Shown here piece after piece: positions 6,726 to 63,568 of a stretch of DNA of 64,000 nucleotides. A program made the translations under genes and the position numbers. The stretch comes from a virus. Each line of letters starts with the position of its first letter. The first letter of the stretch is position 1. The stretch is taken from the IMG/VR virus record IMGVR_UViG_3300029319_000012, positions 32,001-96,000 of that record; one strand, given 5' to 3'. The notes below the pieces were generated by a model. That model saw nothing but the letters and a program-made list of their open reading frames with translations, did no database searches and was not told the DNA's origin.

Positions 6726-7673
6726 ATGAAAATACTATACATAGACCCAGTTGTCAAGACAGCTACATCAGCAAACTATCATTATTATGATGGTGTTTAT
6801 GACGAACTAATAAAAGAACATCAAGTTGCGTTACTGGCTCATGTTCCAGCCAACGTTAAAGATATATGTAGACACAATAACTTTGAGCCAGATTTTGTTG
6901 TTTTTGGATTAGGGTGGTTTAATCATAAATATTTTAACAAAATTCAAGGTCTAGATTATCCATCGGCATGTGTATTATTCAAGCCGCAAAATGAATTAAA
7001 AGAAAAGCTTGATTTTTGCAAAATAAACAGTATTGATGTTTTATTAACACCAAATCCTGATTTTGCAGGATACGAAAATATAACTGGTGTTAAATCTATG
7101 CTCTTTCCATATGGATTTGATGCTGATACGTTTTACGATAGAGGTCTAAAAAAAGAATATGATGTTGGTTTTTCTGGTGCGTTGCACGAAAATAAACATT
7201 ATCCACCGGGTGCTTTTCCTGTTGAGAATATTAGAACGAAAATAGGTGGTCTTCTTAATGACAATCACGATATCAACGTTTTCTGGAGTTCAAGTGATTC
7301 TCAGCCGGCTAGAATACCTAGCTATGAAGAATATTCAAAAAAAATTAACAGCTCTAAAATATGGATAGCCACCCAAGCAGCGTTTGGTGATATAACACCA
7401 AGATACTATGAGGTTGCTGCATCCGGTGCTTTGCTGTTTTGTCAAAAAATACCACAGCAATATGAACATATTTTTAAAAACGGTTATAATTGTATTGAGT
7501 TTAATCATGATTTAAGTGATTTTAACAAAAAATTAACTTATTATCTTAACAATGATAGTGAAAGACGCTCAATTGTTAATAATGCTCTAGAGTTTTTTCA
7601 TGACAAATATCAGTGGAAAAACAGAGCAAGTGAGCTAATCACAGTAATGCAAGAAGTGATCGATGGACAATAA
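6726..7673 (+). CDS. CgeB/YkvP-like (Glyco_trans_1_2) glycosyltransferase
   Basis: YDVGFSG, YSKKINSSKI, RYYEVAASGALL, YYLNNDSERRSI motifs. Confidence 0.8.
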   Translation: MKILYIDPVVKTATSANYHYYDGVYDELIKEHQVALLAHVPANVKDICRHNNFEPDFVVFGLGWFNHKYFNKIQGLDYPSACVLFKPQNELKEKLDFCKINSIDVLLTPNPDFAGYENITGVKSMLFPYGFDADTFYDRGLKKEYDVGFSGALHENKHYPPGAFPVENIRTKIGGLLNDNHDINVFWSSSDSQPARIPSYEEYSKKINSSKIWIATQAAFGDITPRYYEVAASGALLFCQKIPQQYEHIFKNGYNCIEFNHDLSDFNKKLTYYLNNDSERRSIVNNALEFFHDKYQWKNRASELITVMQEVIDGQ

Positions 7674-8517
7674 ACAAATATTCAAACAAAATTTAAAAAT
7701 GATTGAAATAGAAATTTATTCCTATTGCAACCGAGTTTGTTGGTTCTGCCCAAATTCTTTTATTGATAGAAGAAGTGAAAATAAATTTATGTCGGAAAGC
7801 GATTATTTAGATTTGCTGAATCAACTAGCTGAAATTGATTATTCAGGTGAAGTAGCGTATAGTCGATATAATGAGCCCTTGGCTAACAGGCAGGTGTTTG
7901 TTGAAAGAGTCAAGCAAGCTAGGCAGATATTACCAAATGCTATATTAAAGACAAATACAAATGGCGATTATGTTACAAGAGATTACATTGAAGAGTTAGC
8001 TGAAGTTGGATTTAATCAGCTTTGGATTCAGCAGTATTTAGCGAATGAAGAGAGATACGATCATAAAAAGATGTATGATAGAATTCATAAAAAAATAAAA
8101 AAGCTAGGCTTGCCGGCAACTGAGCTAACAAATATACAAGGCTGCAAACTAGAATATGACTTGTCGTATAAAGAAATGACAATACACATTAGGGCGAGAA
8201 ATTTTGAGCTAGATGGATCGAGTCGAGGAGACACAGTTCCAATTGCTGATGATTATCAGAGAACACAAAGATGCATGCAAGTTTCTGATAATATGTATAT
8301 AGATTATAATGGAAGCGTAATGGTTTGCTGTGCTTTACGCTCAGACGTGCCGGGACAAGAAAGCGGTATAATGGGGCATATTAGCGACGGAAAGCTGTGG
8401 GATATTCATGTTAATGATAGCTATTCTTCATGGAGAGAACATCATAAAGAGGATGGACCTAAAGAGGGTTTTTGTAGAACGTGTCGAGATAGCGTGAAGC
8501 CGACTTATGAGCAATAA
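7663..8517 (+). CDS. Radical SAM protein with SPASM/twitch domain
   Basis: CxxxCxxC (CNRVCWFC), YNEPL, TNTNG; C-terminal C..IDYNGSVMVCC..CRTC. Confidence 0.88.
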   Translation: MDNKQIFKQNLKMIEIEIYSYCNRVCWFCPNSFIDRRSENKFMSESDYLDLLNQLAEIDYSGEVAYSRYNEPLANRQVFVERVKQARQILPNAILKTNTNGDYVTRDYIEELAEVGFNQLWIQQYLANEERYDHKKMYDRIHKKIKKLGLPATELTNIQGCKLEYDLSYKEMTIHIRARNFELDGSSRGDTVPIADDYQRTQRCMQVSDNMYIDYNGSVMVCCALRSDVPGQESGIMGHISDGKLWDIHVNDSYSSWREHHKEDGPKEGFCRTCRDSVKPTYEQ

Positions 8518-58209: not shown

Positions 58210-61200
58210 ATGAAGTTTGCACATATAGCGGATACTCATATTCGCAATTTAAAGTTTCACAAGGAATATAGAGAGGTTTTTGCACAGCTTTATAAAAAGC
58301 TGCAAAAGCTTAAGCCAGATTACATTATACATTGTGGGGATATCGCACATACAAAAACTCAGATTAGTCCAGAGTTTGTTGAGATGTGCTCTGACTTTCT
58401 CAAAAATTTAGCAGATATCGCACCCACTTATGTTATTCTGGGTAATCATGACGGCAATTTAAAAAATTCTAGTCGTCAAGACGCATTAACACCTATCGTT
58501 AATGCGTTAGAGCATGATTCATTATATTTACTTAAGGATTCAGGAGAGGTAATACTAAATGACCAATTTGCAATCAACGTTCTTTCAGTTTTTGACAGAG
58601 ACAATTGGCAGGACCCCACCGACAATAACCGAGTTAACATTGGTTTGTACCACGGTTCTATTAGTGGTATAAAAACTGATACTGGCTGGGTAATGGAGCA
58701 CGGCGAAAATGATATCAGCATTTTTAATAATTTTGACTACGGCTTTCTTGGTGATATCCACAAGACAAACCAAAGTTTAAATGAAAGTGGCACAATAAGA
58801 TACTGTGGTTCCACAGTTCAACAGAATCATGGTGAAAGCAATGATAAGGGTTTTCTTGTTTGGGATATTCAAGACAAAGACAACTATACTTGCGAGCATC
58901 ATATTTTATTAAATCCTAAGCCTTTTATAAGTTTAGGTTTGACGCCCAAGGGTAGGTTGCCTCAGAAGCCTGAAGTACAAAAAGGTGCAAGATTAAGGCT
59001 AATTTCTGAGAATAATTTACCTTTAGATGCCATTCGTCGAGCAGTCGATGCAGCCAAAGTGCGCTTTAAGCCAGAGTCAGTGACCTACCTTAATAGAAAT
59101 GCAGGTAATCATGGCAGTGTCGACAGTTTAGCTAATAAACTTTTTAAAGAAAATCTTCGTGATATTGCTGTGCAGGAAGAGTTGATCAAAGAATACTTGT
59201 CTGACTATCAGCCTGATGACGATACGTTAGCTTCTATCTTCGAAATGAATAAGAAGTATAATATGATTGTCGAGAAAGAAGAAGAAACTAAGCGCAATGT
59301 TAATTGGCAGCTAAAATCTTTAGAGTGGGATAATCTTTTTAATTACGGTGAAGGCAACAAAGTTCAATTTTCATCACTTGATGGTATTGTTGGTATTCTT
59401 GGTAAGAACTTCTCTGGCAAGTCAAGCGTGATTGATAGCTTACTATACACCTTGTATAACACTACGTCAAAGAAAAATAGAAAAAACTATAATATCATTA
59501 ACCAGAACGAAGAAAACGCTCGTGGCAAAGTTCAGATTGATATTGGCACAAAGACATACACAATTGAAAGAAAAAGTACAAAATATGTTAAGCGTCTCAA
59601 GGGCAAAGAAACCAATGAGGCTAAGACAGACGTAGAGTTTACTGTTTTTGACAACGCAACGGAAGTTGAGACTAGTTTAAATGGAATCACAAGACTAGAG
59701 ACTGACAAAAACATTCGCAAGGTGTTTGGCACACTAGATGACTTTCTTACAACGTCTATGGCTAGCCAGCTGGAGTCTTTATCGTTTATCAATGAGGGTT
59801 CTGTAAAAAGAAAAGAGACATTGGCAAAGTTCCTGGACCTTGAGTTTTTCGAGCAGAAGTTCAAACTAGCAAAAGAAGAGTCATCAGATCTCAAAGGCGC
59901 TATCAAAAAAATGCAAGATCGTGACTTTGATGCAGATATTAAAGAATCTGACACTGAGCTAGCTAGAGTTCAAACTGAGTTAATGAACAAGCAAAGACTG
60001 GAACAAGAAAAGCTAGAGCACATATCTGATCTTAAGTCTAATCTAGCAAACACACAAAAGCAAATTGACTCTGTACCGGAAGAAGTTGTTGATATCAAAA
60101 AGGTATTAAAGAATTTAAAGAAAATAGAAAAGCAAGCCGCTGTTTTAAAAACTAATTTAGATAAGAAGCAGGAGGAGTTCGCGCATGATAACAAATTTTT
60201 ACAAAAAATTGAAACATTCCTCGGGAGTTTTGATATTGAAAATGTTAATAGTGAAAAACAAACTGCAGCAAGATATCGAGAAGAGCTGCGAGAAATGGAA
60301 CGAGATTTTGAGCAATACGAAAAAAGAAGAGTAGTAATTGATGACAAGATAAGTTTTATGAAAGCTGCTCCATGTTCTTTAGCTTTGCAAGATAAATGTC
60401 AGTTTATATCAGATGTCAGAAGGGCTGCTGATGATCTGAATAGGGTAAAGATTGGAATGAATCAGTTAACCTTAGTCAAGAACAAAAAACAACAGCAGCT
60501 AGACAACATTAATGAAGTAAAGCTTGATGAGTATTCAAAAAAGTATACACAATTAATGGAGAAAAGAATTAGCGTGAAAGATGCTGTTTCAAAGCTTGAA
60601 GTTGACATTGAAAAAGATAAGCTACAAGTTTTGAAAGCTCAAGGCATTCTTAAGGATCTTAAAGCAAAAGAGGCATTATACGAACAACATCGTGATGCTA
60701 TTGAAAATGTTGAAGGTCTTGTTTTAGAAAAAGACAGATTATTGAAAAAAATTGATGTCGCCACAACAGACATGTCAGCCTTCAGAGGACAAATTGCGAA
60801 GCTGCATCAGTCTGTTGGTCGAGAAGAAGAGCGAAACCAGCAGATTAAAAACCAAAAGCAAGATTTTGAAGATATGCAAAAAGAATTTACTGCTGCACAT
60901 CTTTTTATGACTTGCATGCACGCCAATGGCATTTCATATGATATTATTAAAAAGCGCTTGCCTATTATTAATGATGAGATTGCAAAAACATTAAGCAACA
61001 TTGTCGACTTCGAAGTTAACTTTGAAAACGATGATAAGAAACTAGACATTGCGATTAAACATCCAGCATATGATGCAAGACCCATTGAGATGGGCTCTGG
61101 TGCAGAGAAAACAATTGCAGCTATGGCTATTCGTTTAGCTCTTTTAAACGTTTCCACACTTCCAAAAGGTGATGTATTTATTCTTGATGAGCCAGGCACT

Positions 61201-61365
61201 GCCCTTGATGCAGATAATATGGAAGGCTTTATTAGAATTCTTGATATGATCAAGACACAATTTAAAACTGTCCTTCTTATATCGCACTTAGACTCATTAA
61301 AAGATATTGTCGATTCTCAAATTATGATTGAGAAACTAGAAGGTAAAGCATATGTCAATGAATAG
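58210..61365 (+). CDS. Fused Mre11/SbcD nuclease and Rad50/SbcC SMC-like ATPase (T4 gp47-gp46-like)
   Basis: Phosphoesterase motifs HIADTH, GDIAH, GNHD, HG, GDIH; Walker A GKNFSGKSS; long coiled coil; signature GSGAE; Walker B FILDEP; H-loop ISH. Confidence 0.92.
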   Translation: MKFAHIADTHIRNLKFHKEYREVFAQLYKKLQKLKPDYIIHCGDIAHTKTQISPEFVEMCSDFLKNLADIAPTYVILGNHDGNLKNSSRQDALTPIVNALEHDSLYLLKDSGEVILNDQFAINVLSVFDRDNWQDPTDNNRVNIGLYHGSISGIKTDTGWVMEHGENDISIFNNFDYGFLGDIHKTNQSLNESGTIRYCGSTVQQNHGESNDKGFLVWDIQDKDNYTCEHHILLNPKPFISLGLTPKGRLPQKPEVQKGARLRLISENNLPLDAIRRAVDAAKVRFKPESVTYLNRNAGNHGSVDSLANKLFKENLRDIAVQEELIKEYLSDYQPDDDTLASIFEMNKKYNMIVEKEEETKRNVNWQLKSLEWDNLFNYGEGNKVQFSSLDGIVGILGKNFSGKSSVIDSLLYTLYNTTSKKNRKNYNIINQNEENARGKVQIDIGTKTYTIERKSTKYVKRLKGKETNEAKTDVEFTVFDNATEVETSLNGITRLETDKNIRKVFGTLDDFLTTSMASQLESLSFINEGSVKRKETLAKFLDLEFFEQKFKLAKEESSDLKGAIKKMQDRDFDADIKESDTELARVQTELMNKQRLEQEKLEHISDLKSNLANTQKQIDSVPEEVVDIKKVLKNLKKIEKQAAVLKTNLDKKQEEFAHDNKFLQKIETFLGSFDIENVNSEKQTAARYREELREMERDFEQYEKRRVVIDDKISFMKAAPCSLALQDKCQFISDVRRAADDLNRVKIGMNQLTLVKNKKQQQLDNINEVKLDEYSKKYTQLMEKRISVKDAVSKLEVDIEKDKLQVLKAQGILKDLKAKEALYEQHRDAIENVEGLVLEKDRLLKKIDVATTDMSAFRGQIAKLHQSVGREEERNQQIKNQKQDFEDMQKEFTAAHLFMTCMHANGISYDIIKKRLPIINDEIAKTLSNIVDFEVNFENDDKKLDIAIKHPAYDARPIEMGSGAEKTIAAMAIRLALLNVSTLPKGDVFILDEPGTALDADNMEGFIRILDMIKTQFKTVLLISHLDSLKDIVDSQIMIEKLEGKAYVNE

Positions 61366-61377: not shown

Positions 61378-61929
61378 GTGCAGAAACTATTTGAAAATTG
61401 GCGACAGTATCTACAGGAAAGTAAAGGCAGCAAATATAAAGAATTGCTAAGCGCCATTCTCAAAGGAGACCAGGCTTTAAGAAAAGAATTTGCATTGTTA
61501 ATAAAAAAAGAAGGCGGCTGGTCAAGAGAATTGGCAAATAGATTTGCAGAAAAGCACGGCAATCCAAAAGACGATATATTTGGTGACAAAACAAGACATA
61601 AAAAAATACTGCCAGTTTTACCTAAATTAGATTATCAAAACTTTGACGATGAAGATTGGAGCAATCTTGATCCTTTTATAATACATTTAAGAGATAGAAA
61701 ATATTTACCTGTTCGTAAAAAAGTATTATTAGCCATGGTTAAATATAAAAGATACTGGCGAGATTTAACAACTGATATGGCAAGAGAACTTGATATGCTT
61801 CCAGAGCTTGAAAATACTCAATTATCATATCCAACAGATACTCAAGATAATGGAAAAGTTGACAAGCTTTTAAAAAGCAAAGGTATGGGTTGGGAGCAAT
61901 TAAAAAATCAAGTTTTACAAACTAAATAA
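61378..61929 (+). CDS. Hypothetical protein with KLFENWR leader; body weakly DUF6624-like
   Basis: Leader shared with 61941; ELLSAILKGDQALR resembles the L..M..DQ..R motif. Confidence 0.55.
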   Translation: MQKLFENWRQYLQESKGSKYKELLSAILKGDQALRKEFALLIKKEGGWSRELANRFAEKHGNPKDDIFGDKTRHKKILPVLPKLDYQNFDDEDWSNLDPFIIHLRDRKYLPVRKKVLLAMVKYKRYWRDLTTDMARELDMLPELENTQLSYPTDTQDNGKVDKLLKSKGMGWEQLKNQVLQTK

Positions 61930-61938
61930 CTACTTATT
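61929..61938 (+). promoter_or_regulatory. Candidate late promoter motif ACTACTTATT
   Basis: Core ends 4 nt before ATG 61941, same spacing as at 61366. Confidence 0.55.
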
Positions 61939-61940
61939 AT

Positions 61941-62498
61941 ATGAAAAAACTATTTGAAAACTGGCGAAAGTATGTAAACGAACAATCTTCTGTTGTCCCA
62001 GGCACTGGACCTGAGGGCACTAGTGGAATTGAGCAAGCAACTCAAAGTTTGATTCGAAAAAAAATACTAGAGCCAAAGCCTAAGTCAGCCGGGTCTAAAC
62101 AGGCAGCTGCAAATGTTGAATTTGATCCTGAGTCTTTAGAAGTTGCAACCGACGATTTTGATGATGAGGATGCAGCTGCCGAAGATACGCCTAGCGCCGA
62201 GCCTGAAGCAGCTGCAGGAGGGAGAGAGGCAAGAGAGTTTGTAGTCTTTTCCATAGATACCGATCACCAAGACGAAATAGTGGATGATTCTTATAAAGAT
62301 ATAATGGCATCGAGAGATCCCGAAGAAATAAGACTGGCAGCACAATTTGCTCGTATGGGTGAAAAAGCGGCAAAGGACATACTCAAAAAGCAGTATCGTG
62401 AATATATGCAAGCAGTTGCCAGCGGTCAGGTACCACTCACCCCTGATGAAATAAGATCCCTGACAAAAGGGACCATGATCGCATCTGAGCCAAATTAG
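61941..62498 (+). CDS. Acidic hypothetical protein with KLFENWR leader
   Basis: MKKLFENWRKYVNE N-terminus; acidic disordered middle. Confidence 0.6.
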   Translation: MKKLFENWRKYVNEQSSVVPGTGPEGTSGIEQATQSLIRKKILEPKPKSAGSKQAAANVEFDPESLEVATDDFDDEDAAAEDTPSAEPEAAAGGREAREFVVFSIDTDHQDEIVDDSYKDIMASRDPEEIRLAAQFARMGEKAAKDILKKQYREYMQAVASGQVPLTPDEIRSLTKGTMIASEPN

Positions 62499-62507
62499 AA
62501 ATAATAA

Positions 62508-62517
62508 ACTACTTACT
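62508..62517 (+). promoter_or_regulatory. Candidate late promoter motif ACTACTTACT
   Basis: Intergenic, followed by AGGAGGT SD and ATG 62537. Confidence 0.55.
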
Positions 62518-62536
62518 GTACTAGGAGGTCCATATC

Positions 62537-62731
62537 ATGGCACAGATGAGAGCATGGCTTGACAAACACGTTGAGCGTTTTATTTCAAGAAAGTTTTTGG
62601 CGTGGGGTACGGCTACATACCTTGTCTATATGAACGCCCTTACGAGCGAAGATTGGGTTGCAGTCACGCTTGCTTATATCGGATCACAAGCACTTGTTGA
62701 TCTTGCCACGCAATGGAAACATGGAAGATGA
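62537..62731 (+). CDS. Small membrane protein, holin-like
   Basis: 64 aa, FISRKFLAW followed by two hydrophobic segments; strong SD. Confidence 0.5.
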   Translation: MAQMRAWLDKHVERFISRKFLAWGTATYLVYMNALTSEDWVAVTLAYIGSQALVDLATQWKHGR

Positions 62732-62844
62732 AAAATATATTACAAAAAATCTTAAACTTATTTAAAAAGGCTTGCTGCTGTGTAGAGCAGCGCTGCAAAA
62801 GCTGTTGCGCTTGCTGTAAGTGCGTTAGTTGCGAGGGATGTTAA
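62728..62844 (+). CDS. Cys-rich micropeptide (38 aa, 11 Cys), metallothionein-like; absent from the ORF track
   Basis: MKNILQKILNLFKKACCCVEQRCKSCCACCKCVSCEGC; ATGA overlap upstream and TAATG overlap downstream. Confidence 0.72.
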   Translation: MKNILQKILNLFKKACCCVEQRCKSCCACCKCVSCEGC

Positions 62845-63161
62845 TGAAAATCACAAAACAACGATTAAGGCAGTTAATCAAAGAAGAGCTGGGAAATATT
62901 GACAAAGACGGCGATGCGGATGATGCAGCTGAGTTGCGTGATGAAGGTCAGGAAGTAGAAGAGCTTGTAGGTGATTTAGATTTTTATCATTCTGAGGTGT
63001 CTAAAGATAATAAAGGATTTTTTGCATCTCTAGTTGATATGACAGGCAATTTCTTAGATCGTCGCAAGGATGAGCTAGCTGATGAGTTAAAGCAAGCTTG
63101 TATTAGAGTCTTGCTAGATGCAAAATCAAATGCCTATAAATCAAATTTTCCGTCAAGGTAG
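62844..63161 (+). CDS. Hypothetical protein with MKITKQRLRQLIKEE leader
   Basis: Start moved to ATG 62844 (TAATG); acidic DKDGDADD segment follows the leader. Confidence 0.65.
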   Translation: MKITKQRLRQLIKEELGNIDKDGDADDAAELRDEGQEVEELVGDLDFYHSEVSKDNKGFFASLVDMTGNFLDRRKDELADELKQACIRVLLDAKSNAYKSNFPSR

Positions 63162-63172
63162 GAGTGCATAAT

Positions 63173-63568
63173 ATGCTTACTGTTGTTTTTTGGAAAAAAC
63201 TTTGGTCTTGGATTAAACACTATTGGTATTTTCCTATTATAATAGGATTAATAATCTTTGCATATATCTCTGGATCATCTGCAAAAGAGAAACTTTTTAA
63301 AGTTCTAACAGATCAAAAAGAAAATCACAAAAAAGAAATTGAATTAATTAACAATACAAATGTTGAAAAAGAAGAAATTAAAAAAGAAATTATTGAAAAA
63401 CATAAAGAAGAAATTGAACGTATTGAACAAGAGCACGGCGTTCAAATTCAAGACCTAGAAGAGGAAAAGCAAGAAGAGCTGCTGTCTACTATTGAAGAAA
63501 AGAAAGATAAGCCAGATGATTTAGCAAAAGATATTGCTGCTCTCCTCGGTGCAAAACACATAGAATAG
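63173..63568 (+). CDS. Membrane-anchored coiled-coil protein (i-spanin-like)
   Basis: AGGAG then ATG 63173; one N-terminal TM helix followed by a charged coiled coil. Confidence 0.5.
   Translation: MLTVVFWKKLWSWIKHYWYFPIIIGLIIFAYISGSSAKEKLFKVLTDQKENHKKEIELINNTNVEKEEIKKEIIEKHKEEIERIEQEHGVQIQDLEEEKQEELLSTIEEKKDKPDDLAKDIAALLGAKHIE

Follow-up and report, generated by a model that had tools for sequence, protein, structure and literature searches.

Genomic context of the locus

The window analyzed here, a stretch of 64,000 nucleotides, comprises bases 32001–96000 of a 106,405-base IMG/VR record estimated to be 59% complete; the genomes of complete relatives have sizes of 180–205 kb, and in one case of 284 kb. 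All long open reading frames are located on the plus strand. Close to the end of the window, a gene of 38 codons lies between two other small genes (see Table 1 for coordinates), in a region which comprises the genes of a DnaG-type primase and of a single-chain SbcD(Mre11)–SbcC(Rad50) fusion protein (1051 amino acids, positions 58210–61365) on the upstream side, and those of the large terminase, the portal protein and a head maturation protease on the downstream side. No cultured relative of the virus was found, since the best protein match in searches of 50,697 phage records, that of the SbcCD fusion to Microcystis phage Mel-JY01, had an identity of only 28%; blastn with 6 kb of the region and tblastn with the protein m64 against these records did not yield any match. 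As to clues to the host, neither a tRNA gene within the window nor a close cellular bS21 was found.

Table 1. Features identified near the end of the window (positions are those of the window)
Feature	Position	Strand	Basis or remark
Promoter-like motif ACTACTTA, 29 nt before the m64 start	62508–62515	+	Motif count in the genome; followed by the Shine-Dalgarno sequence AGGAGG (62523–62528)
m64, conserved 64-aa protein, weakly hydrophobic	62537–62731	+	149 relatives; TGA overlaps the ATG of the micropeptide gene
Micropeptide gene, 38 aa, 11 Cys (type B of the phage poly-Cys peptide family)	62728–62844 including stop (ATG at 62728, TAA at 62842–62844)	+	Reading frame, family profile match, relatives
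Leader, residues 1–15 (MKNILQKILNLFKKA), predicted basic amphipathic helix	62728–62772	+	Hydrophobic moment, AlphaFold2, relatives
Cys cluster, residues 16–38 (CCCVEQRCKSCCACCKCVSCEGC), 11 Cys	62773–62841	+	Alignment with relatives
105-aa gene, MKITKxxLxxIIKEE leader class	62844–63161	+	TAATG-coupled to the micropeptide stop
p130, 130-aa protein, N-terminal TM helix and charged coiled-coil body	63176–63568	+	Conserved downstream partner of m64 (synteny)
p150, 152-aa protein, signal peptide and C-terminal TM segment	63579–64000, continues beyond the window	+	Third member of the conserved trio

The small gene codes for MKNILQKILNLFKKACCCVEQRCKSCCACCKCVSCEGC, a peptide of 38 residues which contains 11 cysteines and no aromatic residue beyond F12. 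An earlier note on this DNA had described it as a hidden frame coupled on both sides, and the overlaps are indeed present: the ATG shares bases with the TGA of the m64 gene (ATGA), and the TAA with the ATG of the 105-aa gene (TAATG). The statements of that note on the sequence itself are all correct. A longer frame of 43 amino acids would begin at position 62713; position 62728 is the likely start, because relatives have a Shine-Dalgarno sequence ahead of the MK start. Neither a tandem repeat or microsatellite (TRF) nor a match to an Rfam family was detected at the gene, and no terminator or attenuator hairpin was found following it on the plus strand; readings of the stretch as an RNA element, a terminator or a microsatellite were therefore rejected. 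A frameshift fusion of m64 and the micropeptide appears improbable as well, as the overlap contains no slippery heptamer and most family members lack m64 upstream.

The protein m64 has 149 relatives in viral contigs, with identities of 67–97% among the best 80 of these 149, and it does not match any family in PHROG, Pfam or NCBIfam. The earlier designation of the coupled gene as holin-like is not supported, because m64 has no holin family match in these collections, because its maximum 17-residue hydropathy (KD17) of 1.50 is below the usual cut-off of 1.6, and because no endolysin was recognized among the scanned neighbors; a PHROGs search of the neighbors, which began at position 57242 and extended across the genes of the terminase, the portal and the protease in this record (59% complete), revealed no lysin family. 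The conservation of m64 is unusually high for a holin. The protein p130, with a KD17 of 1.89 at residues 15–37, shows a weak match to an Rz-like spanin PHROG (E = 0.006). m64, p130 and p150 are conserved as a trio located shortly before the packaging genes; a role of this trio in lysis is possible but unsupported.

A family of phage micropeptides

The first clue to a family was a Cys-rich frame located near m64 in two of the closest m64 relatives, which had its own AGGAG site and showed Cys-preserving substitutions. A degenerate DNA pattern comprising the leader and CCC (pattern 1) matched 29 viral loci and at least 119 metagenome loci, many of them on Tara Oceans scaffolds, and gave 0 matches in 185,579 cellular genomes. 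A second pattern, restricted to the C-terminal CCCCCGCCxC and imposing no leader, retrieved 18 further members, whose leaders still conform to (F/I/L)(L/I)H(K/R)LxNLFNxxH. Among the matches listed from these DNA pattern scans of viral and ocean metagenome contigs, a total of 113 distinct micropeptides, including the window copy, was obtained; the conserved Cys spacing that the earlier note had suggested looking for in viral metagenomes is thus found. The family members have 31–40 residues, comprising a short, predicted amphipathic helix and a cluster of twelve Cys and His residues.

When the core of pattern 2 was searched together with a leading His codon, two “MAG” contigs among the cellular genomes were matched. 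Both are visibly phage, harboring arrays of the same small leader-class genes, so these matches to “Pelagibacter” and “Halobacteriovorax” MAGs are not evidence of a host. The member on the phage-like contig binned as “Candidatus Pelagibacter” (L379:3339–3488, minus strand) has a shortened Cys tail, with a basic tail (…CSNKGKKLGRKKLRK) instead. IscA-like and IscU-like genes are located at a distance of 3 kb from this member (L379:6001–6688, minus strand); a link to Fe–S metabolism via IscU/IscA was dismissed, as IscU is absent from nine related genomes. Another member (L340:1–144, minus strand) contains the full Cys core followed by a C-terminal extension, …KLVRRRGRPRKEK, whose resemblance to an AT-hook hints that some family members may contact DNA. 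Outside the window, G000:C1:5645–7543 codes for a protein of 632 amino acids that contains 43 Cys and has a signal sequence resembling that of lipoproteins.

A word-index search of 5.8 billion protein clusters with the 43-aa frame gave no candidate, and the sole match of hmmsearch against 1.84 billion protein representatives was one truncated relative; these sparse matches are consistent with a gene that is missed by annotation. The micropeptide does not match any family in Pfam (E ≤ 1), PHROG (E ≤ 0.01) or NCBIfam (E ≤ 1), and the ESM Atlas contained no usable neighbor of either of the two subtypes described below. A literature search for phage metallothioneins or CCCCC did not find anything relevant, and the core string of SagA gave only DNA strings. 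The gene is present in a single copy where it occurs; it is missing from two complete relatives, one of 180.7 kb that has terminal repeats and one of 185.3 kb, and from several near-complete ones. It is an accessory, phage-restricted gene.

Two subtypes and a conserved number of potential ligands

About 90% of the family belong to type A, MKxxLHKLxNLFNxxHCCCCCGCCxCxxCxGxC, with 31–36 residues, two His and ten Cys. Type B, MKxLLQK(I/F/L)LNLFK(K/R)ACCC(V/I)E(Q/E)CCKxCCACCKCVSCEGC, has 38 residues, twelve Cys and no His; the clear type-B pattern occurs in 9 of the 113 sequences, the window copy included, and two more sequences with Q6 are intermediate or divergent. As compared with type A, both His residues of type B are replaced (H6Q, H16C), N13 is changed to K, and an insert of five to six residues, (V/I)E(Q/E)CCK, splits the Cys run. 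The window leader, MKNILQKILNLFK, differs from the family pattern MK-x-Φ-L-H-(K/R)-L-x-N-L-F-N by H6Q and N13K only, and the window core, C-CC-VEQRCKS-CC-A-CC-K-C-VS-C-EG-C, can be aligned with the type-A core, H-CCCCC-G-CC-x-C-xx-C-x-G-x-C, if the insert and H16C are allowed for. Since the family profile matches the window micropeptide with E = 1e-11, and in view of the insert and H16C, the window peptide is assigned to a divergent subtype and is not a canonical member; the family to which it belongs is an undescribed, widespread and almost never annotated family of phage micropeptides.

The sum of Cys and His residues is 12 in 99 of the 113 peptides, made up of two His and ten Cys (91 peptides), one His and eleven Cys (1) or twelve Cys without His (7), and this twelve-ligand rule reflects essentially one evolutionary split and one intermediate, that is, few independent events. 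Among the Q6-leader sequences other than that of the window, seven of ten have twelve Cys and no His. Comparison across the family indicates that loss of His6 is accompanied by an additional Cys; the His16 of type A corresponds to a Cys in type B, an exchange that has the form of a classical ligand swap. Constancy of the summed Cys and His count is the behavior expected of metal ligands and would be the best available pointer to a metal–thiolate cluster of fixed size. The window copy does not reach this number; it has 11 Cys because position 22 is Arg (CGC) and not Cys. Cys is present at this position in eight of the nine other Q6-leader sequences, the exception being the most divergent of them (L237), with Ala at position 22 and 11 Cys.

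Selection and translation

In the 52 distinct coding sequences of type A, TGT and TGC occur as a near-even mix in every Cys column, and pS is saturated (0.90) at a pN of 0.16, while type B, represented by nine distinct coding sequences of 38 aa with Q6, has a dN/dS of about 0.05; all of these figures are somewhat inflated by ascertainment, because the search patterns required some residues. Pattern 1 did not require the C-terminal spacing, the two Gly residues or His16, and pattern 2 did not require the leader; Gly22, Gly31 and the CxxCxGxC spacing are conserved though unrequested by the patterns. The micropeptide is under purifying selection. The frame, the leader and the Cys pattern are preserved in 113 distinct relatives while third codon positions are randomized, which is far beyond chance, and we are highly confident that the hidden frame is a real gene, as the earlier note had supposed.

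A Shine-Dalgarno core is located 4–20 nt ahead of 99% of the family starts, as compared to 23% of random ATGs at the same loci. The window copy has no Shine-Dalgarno sequence of its own and overlaps the m64 stop instead, suggesting that it is probably translated by reinitiation; an ATGA-type overlap with m64 is present at six of the nine type-B loci with a visible upstream gene. On the downstream side, the next start is within 5 nt of the micropeptide stop, abutting or overlapping it, at 68 of 118 loci (58%), and a gap of more than 60 nt separates the two genes at 34 of the 118.

Runs of three to five Cys codons, together with a stop that is coupled to the next start at 58% of the loci (and coupling on both sides in the window), bring to mind a cysteine-sensing leader ORF, in which pausing on Cys codons when Cys-tRNA is scarce would tune the coupled downstream gene. 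The concept of Cys-responsive attenuation is documented for polycysteine short ORFs of mycobacteria in a preprint (bioRxiv 10.1101/834739). Such attenuator ORFs do not fit the present family, because the micropeptide itself is conserved and the genes downstream are variable. The non-Cys residues of the leader and the Gly spacing are retained as amino acids, with synonymous sites saturated; the downstream genes differ between loci and are unrelated to sulfur metabolism; and the wide gaps at 34 loci and the lack of an attenuator hairpin or terminator following on the plus strand also argue against this explanation, which we regard as highly improbable.

The leader helix

Residues 2–15 have a helical hydrophobic moment of 0.71, a value matched by 0.4% of shuffled sequences, and a net charge of +4, with hydrophobic residues at positions 4, 5, 8, 9, 11 and 12. 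AlphaFold2, supplied with an alignment of 51 sequences, predicted a helix at residues 2–12 followed by coil, with low confidence (pLDDT 56). These data agree with the basic amphipathic N-terminal helix proposed earlier. The leader is also preserved in relatives that were recovered via the C-terminal pattern alone. In a PDB sequence search with the micropeptide (E ≤ 10), nothing was found besides a designed pentameric coiled coil, which matched residues 3–15 without significance (E = 2.5).

Many small genes of this lineage begin with MKxLFENWRKYL(N/Q)E or MKITKxQLxxIIKEE (window positions 61378–62498 and 62844–63161; loci L106–L253), and both of these leader classes end in (L/I)-x-E, resembling the site at which the prohead protease of T4 cleaves. 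The hydrophobic register 4, 5, 8, 11, 12 is common to the micropeptide leader and the MKxLFENWRKYL class, and the MKITK class shares positions 8, 11 and 12 with it. Considering the shared register, the amphipathicity and the (non-significant) coiled-coil match, the helix could serve for self-association, for anchoring in the plane of the membrane, or as an address tag in common with other proteins.

A polar stripe, H6/N10/N13, is conserved along the helix in the family. Such a surface might belong to a small inhibitor or decoy, which would bind a host protein, such as a metalloprotein, an enzyme of thiol-redox metabolism or part of a defence system, via the helix and the thiols. The accessory status of the gene, its absence from two complete relatives and its single copy elsewhere would suit this role, as would its position in hypervariable small-gene islands, which are typical of host-takeover and anti-defence genes. 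However, similarity to described inhibitors was not detected in PHROG, Pfam, NCBIfam or the ESM Atlas, and we consider an inhibitor unlikely.

Gene neighborhood and promoter-like motif

Among the type-B loci with a visible upstream gene, the micropeptide gene directly follows m64 in six of nine, and in the remaining three it follows a single MKITK-class gene located after m64. Type A follows an M50-type metalloprotease gene at 17 loci, the primase gene at 5 and m64 at 5, and its commonest setting is an array of small genes of the MKITKxQLxxIIKEE or MKxLFENWRKYL class. MKITK-class genes adjoin the micropeptide gene on the upstream side at 31 and on the downstream side at 37 loci of type A; for type B, the numbers are 3 and 4. 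At the 17 protease loci (e.g., L106, L109, L112, L118, L129 and L130), the gene of the membrane metalloprotease, which we take to be M50/site-2-protease-like from its HELGHY motif, is located 33 nt upstream of the micropeptide gene, with a promoter-like motif in between. The link to the coupled gene that had been considered for the window thus stands in part: the subtype present in the window nearly always occurs right after m64, but across the family the micropeptide gene occupies several unrelated places, and a specific connection with lysis therefore does not apply in general.

The motif ACTA(T/C)TTA occurs 17 times on the plus strand of the genome versus 3 times on the minus strand. Ten of the plus-strand copies are intergenic, and nine of these are located 12–29 nt ahead of a gene start. 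Among the genes preceded by the motif are m64, both ENWRKY-class genes, and a 387-aa gene beside the protease and scaffold genes (head module). Among 79 scanned relatives, the motif was found ahead of m64 in 25, and in 20 of them at a distance of 26–29 nt from the start; the count of 25 is an undercount because several loci are mis-registered. Genes of the micropeptide family have their own copy, as GGAACTATTTATA, in 17 of 102 distinct upstream regions. The motif may be the promoter of one temporal class of genes, and since it precedes m64 as well as head-module genes, the micropeptide is presumably made together with the latter.

This setting has to be weighed as support for a targeted structural or lysis-associated peptide, whose helix would lead it to the prohead core or to the inner membrane by m64/p130/p150, and whose thiols would act through disulfide or redox chemistry, or whose cationic helix would perturb membranes, without any storage of metal. 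Internal proteins of phage T4 carry capsid-targeting sequences, and gp28 of phage phiKT, a “disruptin”, is an example of a cationic, membrane-perturbing protein. The promoter-like motif is shared with head-module genes; type B occupies the slot between m64 and p130, right before the module of terminase, portal and protease, and its start overlaps the m64 stop (ATGA) at six of nine loci; the helix is cationic and amphipathic, and its register recurs in other leader classes; and two relatives have replaced part of the Cys tail by a basic tail, one of them RGRP-like. On the other hand, the micropeptide leader lacks the (L/I)-x-E processing site of the neighboring leader classes, type A is located after the M50 protease gene, after the primase gene or within small-gene arrays, and m64 shows no holin signature. 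Taken together, a role of this kind appears doubtful.

The poly-cysteine domain and its possible function

Residues 16–38 comprise 11 Cys among 23 residues, arranged in CC, CxC and CxxC motifs, and no Phe, Trp, Tyr or His. The metallothionein-like composition of the tail, with its lack of aromatic residues, is as it had been described, and it makes a role in metal binding or redox chemistry a reasonable supposition. Kinship with metallothioneins, in contrast, was not borne out, as the micropeptide does not match any Pfam metallothionein family at E ≤ 1 or any metallothionein in the PDB at E ≤ 10. Likewise, the resemblance of KSCCACC to the alpha domain of vertebrate metallothioneins is not conserved: the Ser position is occupied by N, A or S in the closest relatives, and the nearest ones have KNCC or KACC.

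A conserved leader preceding a poly-Cys core is also the layout of a modified-peptide precursor, in which a modifying enzyme would recognize the leader and convert the core Cys residues to thiazoles or thioethers, in the manner of streptolysin S or of radical-SAM-modified peptides. The core of SagA, the streptolysin S precursor, also opens with five Cys. A radical-SAM gene is present in the window and in three of the four complete peptide-bearing relatives; however, the radical-SAM proteins differ in size (285–661 amino acids) and are encoded far from the peptide gene, and none is encoded in the complete peptide-bearing genome G003. Moreover, the YcaO cyclodehydratase (PF02624) is absent from the record and from the four complete peptide-bearing genomes, whereas control genomes were matched, the neighbors of the peptide gene are variable and include no recognizable enzyme partner, and the core has no conserved Ser or Thr. 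We therefore consider a modified peptide to be very unlikely. The radical-SAM protein of the window (positions 7663–8517, 284 amino acids, motif CNRVCWFC) is not linked to the micropeptide gene; the genes around it, judged from the N-termini of their products, presumably code for sugar-modification enzymes (aminotransferase, oxidoreductase, epimerase).

Our best reading of the locus, to which we assign a probability of about 0.4, is that of a translated phage micro-gene for a leader-tagged metal–thiolate peptide consisting of two parts. Residues 1–15 would form a basic amphipathic helix, most likely serving as a targeting or self-association tag, and residues 16–38, the poly-Cys domain, would most likely enclose soft metal ions (Zn, Cu, Cd or Fe), with about twelve Cys and His ligands making up the thiolate cluster. 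Translation of the window copy would occur by termination–reinitiation from the 64-aa gene, and transcription probably starts from the ACTACTTA motif that also precedes head-module genes, so that the peptide would be synthesized together with their products. In this explanation, we infer the time of synthesis, the function of the helix and the binding of metal, and metal binding in particular, to which composition and conservation of the ligand count point, is proposed tentatively.

Several observations are at odds with a metal–thiolate peptide. No sequence relationship to a metallothionein family or to a solved structure was detected, and the AlphaFold2 model is of low confidence. Adjacent thiols are sterically awkward ligands, and to our knowledge a run of five adjacent Cys is not seen in metallothioneins. 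A co-occurring metal-handling partner gene was not found (IscU being absent from the nine related genomes), the ligand rule rests on essentially one split and one intermediate, and the window copy has 11 ligands (R22) and no Shine-Dalgarno sequence of its own. Besides, output alongside the head genes would be unexpected for a general metal buffer.

As a more far-reaching idea, which we deem quite unlikely, the MK amphipathic helix, whose positions 4, 5, 8, 11 and 12 are hydrophobic, would be a common address tag on many small cargo proteins, and the poly-Cys peptide the smallest cargo, a twelve-ligand metal–thiolate module sent to the prohead or the membrane late in infection. If so, this would be the first case of a targeted metallothionein-like peptide encoded by a phage, and it would connect the chemistry of trace metals in the ocean with the assembly of virions or with lysis. 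The shared leader register in itself raises the possibility of a common targeting system for many small phage proteins.

Whatever its function, a gene of about 100 nt, almost never called by automated annotation, is strongly selected in well over a hundred uncultured large phages of the ocean, and its product is among the most cysteine-dense sequences known. If the micropeptide binds metal, it would give phages living in waters poor in Zn, Cu, Cd or Fe a handle of their own on these metals, and it would offer bioinorganic chemists a very small natural metal-cluster peptide, for which the His-to-Cys swap between the subtypes constitutes a ready-made natural experiment.

Comparison with known systems

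Precursors of the streptolysin S type (SagA) likewise have a conserved leader, and their core, too, begins with a run of Cys. The micropeptide is much shorter, its core is not rich in Ser and Thr, and the complete genomes lack YcaO and dehydrogenase genes. The leaderless polycysteine sORFs of mycobacteria (bioRxiv 10.1101/834739) are tiny and unannotated, too, contain consecutive Cys codons and are often coupled to the next gene; unlike in these, selection acts on the peptide sequence of the phage family, the start codon is preceded by a Shine-Dalgarno sequence of its own (the window copy excepted), and the downstream genes are variable and unrelated to cysteine supply. A very dense Cys string beside a membrane-seeking element is also found in the Cys-string or palmitoylated tails of CSP/DNAJC5 and of the coronavirus spike endodomain. 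These tails rely on eukaryotic DHHC acyltransferases, whereas the micropeptide belongs to phages with Shine-Dalgarno genes and T4-like head genes, and has no J domain.

Metallothioneins, such as the vertebrate alpha domain, fungal Cup1 and the Neurospora protein, and bacterial SmtA/BmtA and MymT, resemble the micropeptide in their small size, their CC, CxC and CxxC motifs and the aromatic-free Cys domain, and the 10–12 potential ligands of the micropeptide correspond to those of single-cluster metallothionein domains. The Cys density of the micropeptide is higher (48–59%, as compared to about 30% in metallothioneins), with runs of three to five adjacent Cys, and, unlike metallothioneins, the peptide has a conserved amphipathic leader, is encoded by phages and has no detectable sequence relationship to them. 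The closest counterparts of the window peptide are the micropeptides of the HCCCCCGCC family, with which it shares the leader MKxΦLxKLxNLF, the C-terminal CC-x-CC-x-C-xx-C-x-G-C and a phage-only, marine distribution.
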